Positions 1,223 through 59,597 of a stretch of 64,000 bases of DNA are shown here, one piece after another. The translations under genes were made by a program, and so were the position numbers. Under the pieces are notes generated by a model. The model did no database searches. It had not been told where the DNA came from and saw only the letters and a list, made by a program, of their open reading frames with translations. Origin of the DNA: Chrysomallon squamiferum (Eukaryota > Animalia > Mollusca); contig CM022674.1 of assembly GCA_012295275.1 (NCBI GenBank), positions 12,586,001 through 12,650,000 of the forward strand. Reading direction: 5' to 3'. The number at the start of each line of letters is the position of its first letter. Position 1 is the stretch's first letter.

Positions 1223-10864
<9,642 letters not shown>

Positions 10865-14214: not shown

Positions 14215-46267
<32,053 letters not shown>

Positions 46268-49702: not shown

Positions 49703-49907
49703 CAGTGGTGCCCAATACGCCGATCGCATAGATAGTGTGGGTATATCGCATGACACTAAAAAATAGCCCATCATACATCATATATTGTAAATATAAGGTA
49801 TACTTAGTATAAATAAATAAATGTTTTGCTTTTTTATTCTAGGTAGATCATTTTGCCTTGGTCATTTAAAAAGTAGCCCGCAAGCCAAAAAAGTGTGGGC
49901 ACCCCTG
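49703..49907. mobile_element. Non-autonomous hAT (Buster/Charlie-like) MITE, 205 bp
   Basis: TIRs cagtggtgccca / tgggcacccctg. The 8-bp TSD is gtatacac / gtatacat with a central TA. Confidence 0.85.
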
Positions 49908-50687
49908 GTATACATAAGAGTATACATAAATCTGTGCTGATGTGTATTTACGACCGAACAAGAAAATGGCGCCCCATTTGCAAACGATAATTTACATATG
50001 TTAATGTTTTCACTTATAGATCCAGTGGCATTTTATTCAGTGTTAGCATACGCCTTTTTTTCTTCTTTTTTCGGGTTTTTATTCGTGTTTATATATTCAT
50101 TTATTGTATTTTTTATATTGTTATTTATTATTATTAAAAATATATTATTAATTTTTACACACACACACACAAAAATAATAATAAAAAACAAATAATAATA
50201 AAAAAACAAATTGAAAAGTAATAATTACTTTCATGTGACACCCCCCCCGTCAAAAGTCTACGTGTACCCTCGTCACCCAATCACGACTTGACAAGGATAC
50301 AAATTGCCTGAGTGTGCTGCGTTAAACAATACAAATAATTGTAATAAAATTAAACGTTATATTTGTATAAATATATCAGAATTAATTAAGCAACCATTTA
50401 GATACTTTGTTTTCCATTTTTAGGCGATTTTTCCTATGCTCAATATAATAGTTAATACTGGTAACGATATGTCAGAAATAGTCTCGTATCACTATCATAT
50501 AAAGCATGTATTTATAGAGATCGGACGTTTCCACAGATATTCATTCATTTCAGGAAACCTGATTTTAAAAAAAAGAAAAAAGAAGAAGTAATAATAATAA
50601 AATAAAACAATATAAAATAAAAATAAGAAATAGTAATTCAAAATTAATTAAACCCGTCGTAACATGGCTGGAGTGTAGAGGTTTCTG

Positions 50688-50692
50688 ATTGG
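50688..50692 (+). promoter_or_regulatory. Inverted CCAAT box upstream of the RRM-TatD gene
   Basis: ctgattggtc about 100 bp upstream of the first ATG, in a CpG-richer patch. Confidence 0.45.
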
Positions 50693-50787
50693 TCACTTAA
50701 CGTCTGTGCCACTTTGTCTTGGGAGATAACTCTTTTGCAGGCGTAAACAAAAATGTAAAACCGCGGTAAGAAGAAGAGAGAAAAAAG

Positions 50788-50865
50788 ATGAAAGCTGTAT
50801 TAGCACAAGTATCGCGATTTTTCCAAATCTACCAAGTTTTCAGATTAACCACTAATCAAAAATGA
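50788..50865 (+). other. 25-codon upstream ORF whose stop overlaps the main start (ATGA)
   Basis: MKAVLAQVSRFFQIYQVFRLTTNQK*. TGA at 50863-50865 overlaps ATG at 50862-50864. Confidence 0.6.
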
Positions 50866-52707
50866 CAAATCCAGAAACCTGTTTTTCATTGTCAACTGTG
50901 AAGCAAGTTATAATAGGTAACTGTTTTTATGTATCTAAGCAGCCAAAAGTCAAACTGACTGACAGTGAATTCAGTGACAAAAAGAATCATTAATTTTTAA
51001 TGCAAATTACATTCTAAGGGAAGAATACTGCACATATACAATAACATATTGAAACAAATCGTGCAAATAACATTACTTACTAATTAAATAATTAAAATTA
51101 TAAGAGGAAATGTAGATACTGATTAAAAAAACCAAAAACAAATGAGGAATAATCAGACGTAAAAAACATATTTAAACAATATAGCTCGTAATTTATGTTA
51201 TTTGTTAATGTATAGAACTAAAAAATAACGAGTGAAGTTCTTTTTAGATAAGTGCCAGTTATTTTTGATTTGTATGAGGTGCCAATAATGGGTCACTGAC
51301 ATCACCACAAAACAGATTAGACCAATGTTTTACAAATTATTTTCAGACAATGCATTTATTTTTTTATGATTTAGTATTAAAACCCATTTTCTTTTGCACA
51401 CTATTTTTGCAGGCTTTGATATCATTAAATATTTTCTGTTAATTTTATATCATCTTTGAAGTTTTCTATCCCATTCTTAAATTCTTTGTGGCAGAAGCTG
51501 TGTCTAAGTCAGTCTGTCTATGGATAACTGAAAACTGGATTCATCTCTTTTATTCCGAGATACTTTTTTTTTAAAGTACAGATAGCTGGTTTTGATCAGT
51601 ATGTCTATTTATTTTAATGCAAAAAGAAATATTTTGTTTTTTTGAAACAGCTTTAACTTGTAAACAGATCAATAATTTAAATTAATCCATACTAGGGCTG
51701 TACTAAACAAGGTCTGACCGTTCAGGTATTTTGGTCCCCCTCCAGAGTTATAAAGTGTCTTAATAAATATGTTGCCCTAACATAGATATTATAAAAATAT
51801 ATTGTTATATCCTTTTCGTCCATCATTTTTAGTGTCATTTTAAAAATTTATATAGTTTAGTTACATTATTTTCATATATTTTTTCACTATTTTTTTCAGT
51901 GTGCACTTTGTTGTTAAGATTAGAACTTGTTATCTATCCTTTATAATTTAGAAGAAATTTAGTTATGTTATTTACAGATTTATTTTGAAAAGGTCTTATA
52001 TTTATTTTTGTTATTATTATTTTTTTTTTTTCAGGTAATATTCGTAAAGACACAAGTATACAGGATTTAAAGGAATGCTTTGGTCAGTTGATTAAAAAAG
52101 GTGATGTCACATTTAAAATCGCTGTGGATAAAAAAGGCAAGCAAAAAGGCTTTGCTGCAGCCTCTGTGCCCATTACATTGGTGGAAGATTTTCTAAGCTA
52201 CAATGGAAGGTAAGTTTTGACCCACAAAAACACATTAAAGTATTGACATGTATGCTCACACACACACACACACACACACACGCACAAACATGCTTTATAC
52301 ATTCTTTGATAAATGGAAACAATTTGTCAAAACACTTCATTTATTTTTAACCACTGTTAGTGGCTACTTTTATAATTTTTGAGTTTTGAGTTATTTTACA
52401 TAATCAACCCAGATTCATTACCATGCTATAATGTTAAATACACCTAAAAACAACAGCATGGACATCTACCACCACTTAGTAGATATTAGGGACAATTATT
52501 GCATTTTTTAAACTTCCATTTAATGCTTTTTGAATGGTATTGCAATTTTTGATTCTTTCTTTCATTTCAGTTTTCAATTTTTCTTTTTCAGTTTCCATTG
52601 AATTTTATATTTCTATAAACATAAAATATTGCAAATATAAAAAGTATGTGTTTTAAAAACAAATGTTTAGTTTATAAAATCATATTGGAAATTATATATG
52701 TTTAAGA

Positions 52708-52762
<55 letters not shown>

Positions 52763-53713
52763 CTAATAATAAATAAAATAAGAATGCATTAACTAAAATT
52801 ACCACGAGCTTTTCTTTCAGTAAAACAAAACAATTTGCTTTCATTATTTATTAAATTCATTATGTTAAAATTACTATTGCATAAATAAAAGCTTATTAAA
52901 AGTTCAATATTTAGCAGTTCAACTGAAATATATTTTATTTGATGAGAAAATGTTTTTCAAAGAACTGTTACAGAAATAAAGAATGTATTGTAGATAGGAG
53001 GCTGTTTGTTAACAGCTGTGGCAAAATATATTTTTATTTTTATTTATTATGACATCTGTATTGTTCCAGAATATATCTGTGACAGGTCTGGATAATTATT
53101 TATTTCCATGTGCATTTTATACATAACAAAAAAATAAATCTAATTATTTGTTTTGAAATGTCAGTTTAAACCAGACATTTAACCATCAGTTTAATGTAAA
53201 AAAAATCTTTGAACCTAAGTCTTTGAATCTATATAAATCACTGTAGTAAATCAAATCTTACTGGTTCATGTTCTAATTACTGTTATTTAAGAAACATGAA
53301 AGGGCACAGAATCACAGTTGTTCAGAGTGATGGCTTCAAGATTCCCAAGTCAACAAGATGGCAGCAGGAGGAGACGGGAGTTTTCAAGTCAGCCCCGGTG
53401 CAGAACAATTCACTGCCCACCGCACCCTTTCTTTATGATCTTTTTGATGCTGGTGTCTATCTGACACACCCAAAATTTTCCAAGAACGTCCACATGGTCA
53501 TAGAACGAGCACTCAGCTGTGGTATTCAGATATTTTATAACATTTTTATTTGAAATATGTATTTATAAAAGAATGTTTTGAAATACTAGATATTTGTTAT
53601 TTAATTTTGATTTGTTCACATGAAGCCTGATATTGAGAAATGAGTGACAAATAATACATAATGTGAAAATATATAATTTTATGATTTTTTTAAATTTTTT
53701 TTTTTTTTTTTTT

Positions 53714-53750
<37 letters not shown>

Positions 53751-56163
53751 ACGCTTATTATTAATATTATTTTAATATGTAAGTGTATTAATGTTAGAAC
53801 TAAATAATCTTGACAGAAAATAAAAATAATATTTGTTTCAACATATAGTAGGCTTATTTAGTCTAATATTAACATTGAAATAAAATAAAAAAAAAAATAA
53901 AATAAAAAAATTATGAATTATATTAAGATAAATAGTAAAATGTAAATCTGATTATCCTTTTAATTAATTAAAAATCAGATTTTGGTTTTTATTGTTTCAG
54001 GTGTTCAGAAAATGGTTCTGCTTGGTAGAACAATCCATCAATGTGAACAAGCACTCAGTCTCTGCAAACTTTTTCCAGGGTCTCTGTACTGCACAGCAGG
54101 TCTGTATTATTATTAAATTTTTATTTTATTTCTAAAATGAAATTCTTACTTTTGAACTTGTTATTATTGTAGTTTTCTTCATATGTGAATTTATTTTTGT
54201 GTCATGCATACATAATTTAGTCATTTAAAAAACCCATTATATTAGTTTTCTTTTCGGGTGAATTTTACAGGTATAAATATTGAATTAAGTAATTTAATAC
54301 ATCTTTTATAGCTGTTTTATTTTTATATATGAAATTAACTTTGTATTTCAAAAAATATATAAATAAATAAGTAAATTTAAAAAATAAATCAATCTTAAAA
54401 TTCAGTTTGCTACATTAAATTAAATAATGGCTAAAAAAGAAATGATCAAATATTACAGTACTGAAAAAAAGTGATTAGTCCTACAAATATAGTTCCAGTT
54501 AATTAACAGGTGTATAAACAAAATGTTTACTGAAAATATCAAATAATATTATTTTTTGGTGAAATTAAGAAAGAGAATATTAAAATTTGTGATCTAAACA
54601 TTCTAAAGTCACATGAAAAAATGGATTTTAAAAATATTTCTCAAACTGTTTCTAAATTTGCTTCTGTATACTCTGAAATATCTAACTATTAAAATATTTC
54701 ACAAATAAGTCTTAACATTTTTTTAAATATTAAGATATTGTTTTTGAAATGTCCAAATGATAATATATATATAAAATTTCATGAATTATTCCTGGAAAAA
54801 CAACTTCTGTTTAAGATAAAATCTCCATATAACAATCTATATAACATTTCTGGAATTGTTACAGAGAAAGCAACTGTCTATTTAAGATAAACCTGTTCAG
54901 ATGGTAATATATATAAAATGTTAGGAATTATTCTTGGAAAGCAAGTAAATATCTAGGATAAATTTCTAGGTAATAATGTATATATATATGTACAATATTT
55001 CAGGAATTGGTCCTAAAAATGCCATTATATGGACAGACGAGAAAGAGAAACAGCTGCTGGAGATAGCGTCCAGTCCACACTGTATTGCTATTGGTGAGTG
55101 TGGACTGAGTCCACCCTGGATTAACTCCACACTTCAACAACAGATGGATGTTTTTGAAAAGCAGGTACAAAAATATAATTGTTATTAAAACATAAATATT
55201 GTTGGAAATAATGCGTTCAGTGCTTCATTAAATAAATTGTGTCTCTTCAATAACTCTACAAGAAATGGCTGCTCTGCAGTATCTTTTTTTACTAAGAGAA
55301 ACCACTGTGATTGATTTTTAAATTTATTTTAATAATGTGGATTATGCTCCTTTTAGATTTAAATGATTAGAACATGTTTTAGTTGAAATGTGAACTTCGT
55401 GTTGATTTGGTACTAAAGTATCAACTATGTTACATTCAGTCATTTTCTCTCCTTTGGCAACAACAACAGATTTTAATCTTTGAACTGTGGTAAGTGAAAT
55501 TAAAAGATTTATTTGTATTTTTCTATTAACATATGTCATCTGGATTTTGGATTTTGATTTTACTGTTAAAAATGTTTTAATTGTTATCAACCCTTTCATG
55601 TATTGCCTTTATTATTATTATTATTATTATTTTTTTTTTTTTTTTTTGTTCTCTTTTTAAGATTCAGCTGTCCATCAAGTTGAAGAAGCCTCTAGTTGTA
55701 GTGGAAAGGAAGGCACACACAGAGATGTTGTCACTGCTGCAGAAATACAAAAGTCAGCTTGTTGATGTGGCCGTCAACTTCATTCCAGAATCAGCTTCAC
55801 AGATAGAGAACTACATTGAGGAAGGCTGCTACATATATGTTCAAGGTTTATCTGTCTGACTGACTGTTAGTCTTTTTGATGTGTAGATTTAATATTATTT
55901 CTGTAGTGTGTCAGTACAGTAGATCAGTCTGGTAATATTTTATTTAGGAATATATCTATCTGTCTGACATCAAATCTTATGATATACATTTTTGAAATTA
56001 TTGTTACATGATTTAAATATGATGTAGATTTAATGTGTTAATTTAGTGGTAAATAAAATATTTTATCTGAGGTTTTTTTCCTAATTATTATTTTTTTTTT
56101 TTAAATTTAAATTTAAATTTTATTATTATTTTTATTATTATTATTATTGTTTTGGTTTTATTA

Positions 56164-56194
<31 letters not shown>

Positions 56195-56831
56195 TTTTTT
56201 TTTTTGCTTTTATTTCTTATTATTTTTTTTTTTTGCTTTTTATTTATTTATTTATTTATTTATTTCATATTTTAAAATTCTGTTCTATTACTTTTCAGGT
56301 AATGCCTTTTTGCCTAACTACAAGAACTGGTTTGGTAAATGGCTGAAGGACACAGACAGTGAAAACATCCCACTGGAAAAACTTCTGTTGGCCAGTTTTT
56401 CTCCACACTATGGCTTGCAGAGCAGCACTGACCTTGATGTTTACACCAGCAAGGCAGATGAGGATGTGTATGTTAAAAAGTCGTTCGAGTTGATGCTGGC
56501 AAATTGCAAAGATTCTCACAATGAACCATGCAGTCTTCCCGCGCTGCTTATAATGATGTGTCGCCAAACTGGTGAAATCACCAACCCGCTCTCGTTGAGT
56601 AAAAAACTCACTCACAACTCAATGACATTTTTTCGACTCACCAAGGAAAGTGAAGAAACAGCAGAAGAGATAAAGCCTGATGGACAGAAACCCACAGAGA
56701 AAATGGGTTGTCATTGGTCGTTCTACTTTAAATCCTTGTTACTTGCAGTTATTGTTGGTTTATTTGCTGTTGTTGCAGTTGTTATTAAGAATGCTCTTGT
56801 TCTGAATGAAGCCAAAGTTGATAAGAGTTAA
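50862..56831 (+). CDS. RRM + degenerate TatD-family nuclease domain + C-terminal transmembrane helix, 7 exons, 478 aa
   Basis: Exons 50862-50916, 52035-52209, 53292-53521, 54001-54099, 55004-55164, 55662-55845, 56299-56831 (1437 nt, phases consistent). RRM: RNP2 VIIGNI, RNP1 KGFAAASV, beta4 NGRNMKGHRITV. TatD motifs: LFDAGVYLTHPKF, YCTAG, AIGECGL, KKPL, IPLEKLLL, NEPCSL. TM segment SLLLAVIVGLFAVVAVVI. Confidence 0.85.
54770..55015. repeat. Degenerate tandem repeat containing copies of the exon-5 acceptor junction
   Basis: atttcatgaattattcctgg, atttctggaattgtt and atgttaggaattattcttgg precede the real atttcag|gaattggtcct. Confidence 0.6.
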
Positions 56832-59530
56832 GTTGGTGTTAGAAATAGTTACAACAGTGCCTTGTTGTTTTAACAAAGTTAAAGATCTGAAATAATTTTT
56901 CTCTTTATTTTTGGTCACTTGACAAAGTGGATGTTTTCAAGATGTGACAAAATATGTTAACATGTTTTGCAATGTAAATCATACTGCAACAACCACTAAT
57001 CTTTTTTTTAAATTTATAACATAACATTTGAGAATTAGCATGTTTTTTAATTTGGTGGATTAAGACAGTTTAGTCAGTTATGAACAGATTTTTTTCTTTG
57101 AGTTAATTGAAAGCTTTCAGCTCAGTATATGGTTTGATATCTTAATTTTATTTTAAAATAGGTCTTAGTTTTTTCATTTAGACAATATAGTAAAAAAAAC
57201 AAAATCAAAATCAAAATCAAAAAAAGATTTCTGTTTAGATTTCTATATTTCTTTTTCCATTTTCATTTTCTTTTTCTAAAATTAATAACATCATCTTTAC
57301 TAGATGGAATATTTCTAAAATTAAAAAATATATATCTCAAACAGAATCAGTCTTGAGAGCTAAATTTTATTCATGGTGGTAATATTCTGTATGATAAAAT
57401 AAGCAAATAATGGATTTAGTTTACCCAGGAAACTACTTTTGAATGTCACAAACTGGAAATACTCCTTGAAGTTTTTCCTAACAACACTGGTTCTGAACTA
57501 GGATGATAAATGTGCAAAGAACTAAGTGAATAGATTGTTTATTACAACCATTATTTTCCTTTTTTTCTCCTTTGTTGGTTTTAAATTTACATTAATTTTC
57601 AAAATAACATATGAACTAATTAAAAAAAATTTTTATTTCAAAATAAATAATATTATGAAATCAAAATAGTTAAATAGATTTTTAATTTGGTATATTATGG
57701 CAAGGATAAAAAAAAAAGATAGAAAATAAAAAATAGAAAAATAAAATAAACAACATGTATAGTATGCATTTACAAAAGAACAGACATTTTATGAGAAAGA
57801 TTTGAAACTAGGAATTATAACTAACTTGTTAGAACGAGCAAATTTTGTCAAAATAATATTTAACTTTGAAATAAAAACTGAATTGTAGTTAGAGTTTTTA
57901 GACAATACATTTTAATATTCTGAGTACTGTTAAAAAGAAATTTTAACATTAGATTACTCTTTAAAATGATTTATTAATCCAGCAAACAAATTTAACTTGA
58001 ATGATATCAGTTAATAAGTTGACATAGCCACAATAATTTTATTGGTAACATATTCAAATTTTTACATCCATATAACACCCAATACATGATGTATATTTAT
58101 TCTAAGTTACTATTCATTGCTTTATTCATTCATACAGTTTTCTGTTGTGTTGTTAAGACAAACTTTTTTTTTAAAAATGGTGATAATTCAGTATAACATT
58201 CATTGTTTGAACTGTTTATTCAGATATGAAATGACGCAGAGCAAATGATGGTGAATATATTACTTACATGGCAGTGTGAATTTCAGTAATGTTTTTAATT
58301 AATTATTAAGTAAGATTTCAAGAGAAATGAATTTCTCACAGTATGTGAATTGTATACAGTGTTGTTGAAAAACTGTTGTTGAAAAAGTGATTAATCTGAA
58401 ATGGTTTGTCAAGGCACAGAAAGAAAACAATCTATGAAGAATGAGTTAGATGTCAGACATTTTGTTTTATTGTAAAATAATAATAGTAATTTGGTGTTGT
58501 TTTTGTTTTTTTGTACTGTACTCCATTATTTTGATATTTTAAAAACATATCCAATATTCTTTTGACTGTTTAAATACTGAAATATTTTGACAACATAGAG
58601 CAGAATCAAATTTTTATTATTTTTTTTTTTTAAATGTTTTTGTTTACATTAGTCTTTTAACATTAGTTTTGTTGTGGGTTTTTTAATATTCTTACAACAC
58701 ATTGGCAGATCTAAATGGTGTCAAGTGCAGTTGTTATGGTTACAAAATGATGTTAATTGTTAAAAATAGCAATTTATTGCCCTACAAACTTATTCTGAGA
58801 ATCATATACAGAATTTGTCACCAGAATAAGTTACTCTTATGCAATTTCAAATGGATATAAAGTTAAATATTTTAGAACTGTTATTATTATTATTATTATT
58901 TGTTTGGGCTTTTTTTCATTGCTAATCTCTGGAAACAGTGGATGGATAAAAATGATTGAAAATAAGGTGTTTTTCAATATCCTTTCTCAGAACACAGAAA
59001 CATTTCTTTTAGAGGGATCACATTTTACTCATATTTATACAATTGAATAATAATTGATAATAATTTTTTTTTATTATTATTATTATCAGGAAAACAGGGT
59101 AGAGGATAGTTTGTAAAGTCACAGGATTGCAGCAGATGCAGGTTTTGATTTAAAGAAGGGTCACATGCATTTTCTTAACCAGATTTTAGTTTAAAATATT
59201 CAGATATATGTTTAATTTCAGTACTGTCTTTGAGTGGTGCATGCTGGGAATTAATGTATTTTGTAATATGTTGTATTTTTTGACTGGATTGTAAGCAGTT
59301 TTAAATATTGATTGCAAGTCATTTTGGTGTAATTCAGTTGTAATCCTAATTTAGAAGTAATATGTTATTTATGATGTTTTGACCACCTAATTAATAGATA
59401 CACAACCCTAATTAACAGGTATGATATGAGTTTAATCCATTAAACAAGAATTATTTCTGCCTAACTGTTTTTATCAAAACTTCTAATTTTCTGGTTCATA
59501 TGCTTTTTTGAACCAGCATAGGCACAAAAA

Positions 59531-59597
<67 letters not shown>

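Follow-up and report, generated by a model that had tools for sequence, protein, structure and literature searches.

Escherichia coli TatD is a Group I 3'-5' exonuclease of single-stranded DNA and RNA (PF01026, PRK10425; 1xwy, 4p5u, 4pe8), in which the substitutions E91A, E201A and D203A abolish activity and H62A reduces it (accessible part of PMC4176340). The (G/A)xN motif of Group I has been defined, and in human TATDN1, also of Group I (8efg), two metals are held by N12, E112, H149, H174 and D222 (PMC10085689). TATDN1 and the Group II protein TATDN3 are active nucleases, TATDN2 (Group II) also has an N-terminal extension, and no RNA recognition motif (RRM) or membrane tail is described for TATDN1-3 in the accessible part of the same paper. 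PNLDC1/Trimmer of the PARN family offers a likeness in working only, since it combines an exonuclease-type domain, a partial RRM and a putative C-terminal membrane domain, and is found mainly at the endoplasmic reticulum (ER) in HEK293 cells (accessible part of PMC5062988). The gene described here encodes an RRM, a degenerate TatD barrel and a C-terminal hydrophobic helix. It lies in a 64,000-nucleotide stretch of the Chrysomallon squamiferum genome (assembly GCA_012295275.1, contig CM022674.1, positions 12,586,001 to 12,650,000), which is called the window throughout.

Judged by sequence, the product is a TatD-domain protein without the features of an active Group I TatD nuclease. E. coli TatD is its best match in sequence and fold; relative to that enzyme, the family made up of the window protein and its orthologues in four abalone (Haliotis) species is without seven or eight of the eight active-site residues and without R98 and F100, and it gains the N-terminal RRM, the predicted C-terminal membrane helix and introns. 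PNLDC1 differs in its unrelated and active DEDD fold and in its domain order, and no homology to it was found; sequence and fold both identify the nuclease-type domain here as a TatD barrel, not the DEDD/CAF1 domain of PARN and PNLDC1. With a probability of about 0.45, the protein is read as a pseudo-TatD adaptor that is tail-anchored in the ER and faces the cytosol, its RRM holding RNA or a ribonucleoprotein (RNP) and its barrel docking proteins. What a first-pass annotation of this DNA had called the best candidate for an undescribed system is one protein architecture and not a system of several parts. No paper or family model for a TatD pseudoenzyme, or for a TatD with an RRM or membrane anchor, was found in a literature search that fell short of most subscription papers and supplements; the supplementary tree or alignment of PMC10085689 could hold related invertebrate sequences.

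Gene structure and expression

The window is AT-rich, animal-type DNA (GC 23-34% per 2-kb bin). From 50862 to 56831, seven exons join into a 1437-nt frame that encodes 478 amino acids (aa) without internal stop, and each of the six introns, of 453-1118 nt, is GT-AG. The first-pass annotation was thus right in proposing a spliced open reading frame (ORF) free of frameshifts and internal stops. The features are as follows.

50862..50916, + strand: exon 1 coding part, aa 1-18, with the start codon, first RRM strand and onset of RNP2; joined to exon 2 by RNA in 4/4 runs.
52035..52209, + strand: exon 2, aa 19-77, RRM core with RNP1; sub-cut-off Pfam RRM_1 match (E 0.079), RNA junctions, and hhalign probability 95.9 for the whole domain.
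53292..53521, + strand: exon 3, aa 77-154, carrying the final strand of the RRM, the conserved W-x5-GVF motif (53359-53385), a linker and the opening strand of the barrel, where GxY replaces GxN; RNA, orthologue and active-site alignments.
54001..54099, + strand: exon 4, aa 154-187, TatD barrel; RNA and active-site alignment.
55004..55164, + strand: exon 5, aa 187-240, with H62 replaced by G189, H64 by K191, and E91 kept as E218; Pfam TatD E 3.5e-6, RNA loose end from exon 4 in 3/4 runs.
55662..55845, + strand: exon 6, aa 241-302, with H127 replaced by V254 and H152 by N279; Pfam TatD E 4e-5, continuous with exon 5.
56299..56831, + strand: exon 7 coding part, aa 302-478, with E201 replaced by A333 and D203 by F335, barrel end at ~56642, acidic linker, putative tail anchor and stop; alignment and profile match.
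56733..56786, + strand: putative transmembrane helix, aa 447-464, with a tail of 14 residues; hydropathy, and a matching helix at 412-432 in the abalone model.

RNA contigs from four runs of a single study, without a DNA control, were placed on window positions 50400-54200, and their starts at 50759-50803 lie upstream of the coding part of exon 1. Junctions 1 and 2 were seen in all four runs and junctions 3 and 4 in three, junction 1 being deduced from consecutive contig coordinates and junction 4 from a loose end matching window position 55005. Single contigs of runs X2 and X3 pass from exon 1 through exons 2, 3 and 4 into sequence matching exon 5, and RNA coverage of introns amounted to one low-depth piece in intron 2. 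The gene is transcribed and its RRM exons are spliced to its TatD exons; since the contigs join exons 1-4, the main refutation named beforehand, RRM exons unspliced to the TatD exons, is removed. Of the six junctions for which an RNA check had been proposed, the first four were seen in RNA; junctions 5 and 6 lie outside the RNA-covered stretch and are placed by homology, in that the Pfam TatD match continues over junction 5, from positions 63-114 to 115-172, and the gene is colinear with the abalone orthologues.

Seven coding differences between the RNA contigs and the window, which are probably alleles, are all transitions, six synonymous and one Lys to Arg. This synonymous excess (6/7 versus 1/3 expected for transitions, P ~0.007) argues for purifying selection. 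The view that the gene is a duplicate in decay, or that hand-made prediction produced it as an artefact, would fit the long branches in the tree and the weak conservation of the barrel's final third, where identity is 18-19% between window protein and abalones and 58-61% between some abalones. Against it stand the open 478-aa frame, the spliced RNA, the synonymous excess and the three-part layout in four other species, so that decay, which the first-pass annotation had listed as a possible refutation, is already largely refuted and hardly credible.

A 25-codon upstream ORF (50788-50865, + strand, A at -3) lies within the transcribed leader, the contigs of runs X1, X2 and X3 starting at 50759-50781; the ORF ends in a stop codon that overlaps the main ATG, and it could damp translation. 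Its peptide and the N-terminal extension of H. asinina P0020 have an RFF-x-x-x-x-V pattern in common, which may be chance. At the other end, a 3' untranslated region of ~2.7 kb (56832-59554, + strand), with ATTAAA at 59439, is implied by the 4241-nt X2 contig if exons 5-7 are spliced as modelled.

The TatD barrel and its active site

On Pfam TatD (PF01026), exon 5 scores 27 bits, which reaches the cut-off, and the abalone protein P0021 (H. rufescens) scores 87 bits over positions 1-252/253; a profile built from 71 bacterial Group I TatDs gives the window protein 135 bits. The abalone orthologue matches E. coli TatD at E 2e-21 and, far more weakly, TATDN1 at E 4.5e-4, while P0021 and P0006, at 96.7 and 87.7 bits, fall short of the 395-bit equivalog cut-off of NCBIfam PRK10425. 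AlphaFold2 was applied to P0021 with a 41-row alignment (30 bacterial rows), giving a mean predicted local distance difference test score (pLDDT) of 76 and a predicted template modelling score of 0.62. The model comprises a beta-alpha-beta-beta-alpha-beta domain at 18-96, a linker of low confidence at 98-130, the barrel, which is confidently modelled, and a helix at 412-432. E. coli TatD is the best match of the barrel (Foldseek E 2e-19; versus 4pe8, Z 34.2 and root-mean-square deviation 1.8 A over 245 residues), and the proposed superposition on that enzyme thus came out well for the abalone model; TATDN1 and TATDN3 have the same fold (Z 31.1 and 29.9). The barrel fold is predicted to be intact. 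A single-sequence fold prediction of P0006 was discarded for its pLDDT of 38.5.

The active site was compared by aligning E. coli K-12 TatD with the five family members and with TatDs of bacteria; of 80 bacterial loci, 76 were parsed (71 in Group I, 5 in Group II), and two rows of Group II were dropped as over-long. All eight active-site residues are invariant in 71/71 bacterial Group I TatDs, an invariance that partly reflects row selection for N7, H62, H64 and E91 and does not for H127, H152, E201 and D203. The window protein keeps one of the eight, E91 as E218, with N7 replaced by Y133, H62 by G189, H64 by K191, H127 by V254, H152 by N279, E201 by A333 and D203 by F335. The abalones keep none, with Y at N7, S at H62, R or Q at H64, Q or P at E91, C at H127, L at H152, S at E201 and Q at D203. 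Another register for abalone strand 8, seen in one alignment that misplaced exon fragments, was rejected; a local alignment and another alignment both give the register in line with the window protein. All the degenerate motifs quoted in the first-pass annotation were found, with the GE glutamate as the sole survivor, and the case for loss is stronger than it had claimed: the metal-binding Asn7 of the (G/A)xN motif is Tyr in 5/5 family members, and the abalones also lack E91. Among the metal ligands of TATDN1, the Glu equivalent alone remains in the window protein. Structural Gly, Pro and Asp residues around the lost sites are retained.

The barrel is very probably catalytically inactive, because all the other ligands are lost together, the Tyr at the metal-A position is shared and two abalones carry Pro in place of the Glu. 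An enzyme bound to the membrane, with some activity left or turned to a new use through E218 and replacement side chains, would draw on the E91 equivalent kept in the window protein (Gln in two abalones), on the predicted intact barrel and on the tolerance of TATDN1 for E112Q and for single loss of the other ligands (PMC10085689, as far as accessible). Such an enzyme is distinctly improbable in view of the joint loss of all other ligands and of the Pro in two abalones; the replacements moreover differ by lineage (G/S, V/C, N/L, A/S, F/Q), so that, Tyr133 aside, they do not add up to a new conserved catalytic set. The residues named as DNA contacts in E. coli TatD are R98, F100, R129 and R219; R98 and F100 are lost in 5/5 family members and R129 in 4/5, and therefore the barrel, which is neutral to acidic (isoelectric point, pI, 5.6-6.5), is unlikely to clamp nucleic-acid 3' ends as TatD does.

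The RRM and the membrane helix

The RRM is real but divergent, as sequence comparison and modelling indicate. Exon 2 alone scores 13.3-14.6 bits on Pfam RRM (PF00076), below the cut-off of 20.7; Pfam scans of the abalone proteins gave no RRM match, and PDB sequence searches gave no significant one (best E 0.79). Comparison by hhalign with 7 bacterial RRMs (from 15 loci) gave a probability of 95.9 and a pairwise E of 6e-9 over 72 columns, the real N-terminus scored 13.8 bits versus a best of 9.5 among 1000 shuffles, and the N-terminal domain of the P0021 model has RRM topology at pLDDT ~70-76. Fold searches were filled by barrel matches and are informative for the barrel only, not for the RRM. 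The profile check suggested earlier thus held for TatD, while the RRM stayed below the Pfam cut-off and is backed by profile-profile comparison and model topology. The predicted order of an RRM, a full TatD-like domain and a hydrophobic helix 14 residues before the stop is confirmed, and the three parts recur in this order in the four abalones.

Of the canonical RNA-contact aromatics (RNP2-2, RNP1-3 and RNP1-5, consensus from the accessible part of PMC10342978), RNP1-3 is retained in 5/5 family members and the other two are lost in all five, RNP2-2 being Ile/Leu and RNP1-5 Ala/Thr; RNP1-1 is Leu in the four abalones. The domain is basic (pI 9.1-9.7), with a basic beta2-beta3 loop in 5/5, and at 88-96% identity it is among the best-conserved parts of the abalone proteins. 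PTBP1 RRMs bind RNA without these aromatics (PMC10342978, same part), and by this analogy and the retained sequence features, the odds that the RRM binds RNA are put a little over even. A protein-only membrane adaptor was also considered, in which a pseudo-RRM, perhaps with its sheet covered by W-x5-GVF, binds a protein partner and no RNA. The replaced aromatics, the Leu at RNP1-1, the lost DNA-contact residues and the pI of the barrel speak for it; the still basic RRM, its RNP1-3 aromatic, its basic loop and the PTBP1 precedent speak against it, and it is judged somewhat unlikely.

The C-terminal helix was examined with Kyte-Doolittle hydropathy values. In the window protein, helix 447-464 has a 19-residue mean of 2.76 (447-465), the next best segment reaching 1.11, and the 14-residue tail has a net charge of 0 to +1. 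On the hydropathy scan the protein has the tail-anchor pattern of a single C-terminal hydrophobic helix, a short tail and no N-terminal hydrophobic signal. The abalone tail is two residues long, and the anchor region is 93-100% identical among abalones. Mammalian tail anchors tend towards the ER when the helix is hydrophobic and the tail carries little charge, and removal of the tail sent a test protein there (PMC5450235, accessible part). If this mammalian rule extends to molluscs, the window tail would suit the ER better than mitochondria; the ER is preferred because the window helix is very hydrophobic with little tail charge. The alternative of ER or mitochondrial anchoring left by the first-pass annotation thus leans to the ER for the window tail and stays ambiguous for the abalone tail.

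Its loose analogy with the PIWI-interacting RNA (piRNA) pathway fared less well, as no evidence for a piRNA link was found. A piRNA-processing cofactor that sits on the outer membrane of mitochondria and keeps precursors in place for an active trimmer would parallel the layout of PNLDC1, which in the silkworm acts with Papi to trim piRNAs on mitochondria (PMC5062988, accessible part), and would suit the moderately hydrophobic abalone helix. This likeness is an analogy only, the very hydrophobic and little-charged window tail favours the ER, and no Tudor or other piRNA-pathway feature was found; the idea is quite improbable.

Relatives, origin and possible role

A whole-library search with exon 5 gave 12 matches, comprising one orthologue (a 578-aa Haliotis rubra protein), 7 short intact TatD pieces, one duplicated bacterial-type TatD piece and three repeat-rich proteins, which were dropped as chance. 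The H. rubra protein in turn added H. asinina and H. rufescens, the H. rufescens cluster including H. cracherodii, so that four Haliotis orthologues are known (XP_046547512.1, XP_067658864.1, XP_046335670.2, XP_071111872.1). They are labelled 'uncharacterized' or 'TatD-like exonuclease', and no functional study of them was found in the literature searched. The window protein and H. rufescens P0021 are 38.5% identical over 358 columns (E 1e-78; RRM region alone E 6e-17), and the final 176 residues of the window protein gave no separate BLAST match to P0021. The layout common to all five is RRM, W-x5-GVF motif after the RRM, degenerate TatD barrel and C-terminal hydrophobic helix. In a tree they form one clade (support 100/99); this tree, built without intact animal TatDs and with long branches, shows only the grouping of the five. 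The Haliotis proteins differ from the window protein in the lost E91 Glu, the two-residue tail and a linker of very variable length. Between abalone species the first two thirds of the barrel are 82-85% identical, more than the last third. In Haliotis (P0006, P0013-P0015, P0020) the linker between barrel and anchor extends from ~25 to >200 residues by 18-residue tandem repeats, and the anchor is nearly invariant.

Exon 7 found no homologue among 1415 candidate longer proteins, and searches with Haliotis P0006 and with the family alignment (the latter among the best 7996 candidates) returned only Haliotis and two weak bacterial-type TatDs. Metagenome scans for relatives gave no match, and the ESM Atlas gave no relevant cluster for exon 7 and generic TatD clusters at 0.82 for P0006. 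The range of the gene so far is this genome and one abalone genus, and absence from other molluscs does not follow from such word-limited searches. Within the window, tblastn for an intact TatD paralogue matched exon 5 only. Six of the 7 short intact TatD pieces end their match at the EKQ boundary of exon 5 and the seventh at the equivalent boundary; because intact TatD pieces share this boundary, we infer that intron-containing intact Group I TatD genes have it and that the dead gene descends by duplication from one of them.

Head to head with the RRM-TatD gene lies a multi-exon gene for a CHD3/4/5 (Mi-2) remodeller (CHDNT, PHD, chromo, SNF2, CHDCT2; ~21800-46267, - strand), whose probable start codon at 46267 is ~4.6 kb from the start of the RRM-TatD gene. 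Between the two, a 205-bp element at 49703-49907 has terminal inverted repeats (11/12 first bases) and an 8-bp flanking duplication (7/8 match), and we take it to resemble a hAT-type miniature inverted-repeat transposable element. A long low-complexity repeat at 8901-9701 (+ strand), reading as Ser-Cys-Thr-Ser units in one frame, is probably a 12-bp minisatellite.

For the tail-anchored pseudo-TatD adaptor, the proposed course would begin with duplication of an intron-containing Group I TatD gene, after which a conserved Tyr would have replaced the metal-A Asn and the remaining ligands would have been lost. The predicted tail anchor would leave RRM and barrel on the cytosolic side, where the basic RRM with its W-x5-GVF extension may bind single-stranded RNA non-canonically and the barrel may offer a docking site for proteins instead of clamping nucleic acids; the non-catalytic adaptor would hold RNA or RNPs at a membrane, most likely that of the ER. 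Several observations weigh against this proposal. In TATDN1, E112A alone cut both activities, D222A, E220A, H149A and H174A had little effect, and E112Q raised activity (PMC10085689, accessible part); the window protein keeps the E112-equivalent Glu, and two abalones have Gln there and the other two Pro. Two of three canonical RNA-contact aromatics are gone from the RRM throughout the family. The fold was modelled for the abalone protein, with active bacterial TatDs making up most of the alignment, and extends to the window protein by inference. The abalone helix is moderately hydrophobic (1.37-1.50 versus a next best of 1.16-1.26), and a predicted abalone isoform, P0022, is without it. Alternative frame-keeping GT/AG pairs exist near junctions 5 and 6 (14 and 6 pairs), and the RNA support comes from that one study and covers junctions 1-4 only.

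A bolder extension of the adaptor is doubtful: a gastropod RNA-docking platform anchored in a membrane, where the RRM would keep one defined class of RNA at the surface of the ER or of mitochondria and an active 3' trimming or decay enzyme would be recruited by the dead barrel, making it an independently invented organelle-bound RNA-processing station built on a pseudo-TatD.

With the gene known so far from this genome and a single abalone genus, and its function only predicted, the finding has a limited reach. For annotation it brings a correction, as two abalone orthologues are called exonucleases with 0/8 active-site residues. In molluscs, the gene would be a testable candidate for RNA tethering at organelles. 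TatD proteins occur in all kingdoms and are described in the literature consulted only as nucleases; a conserved and expressed dead TatD would show a non-catalytic use of the barrel.

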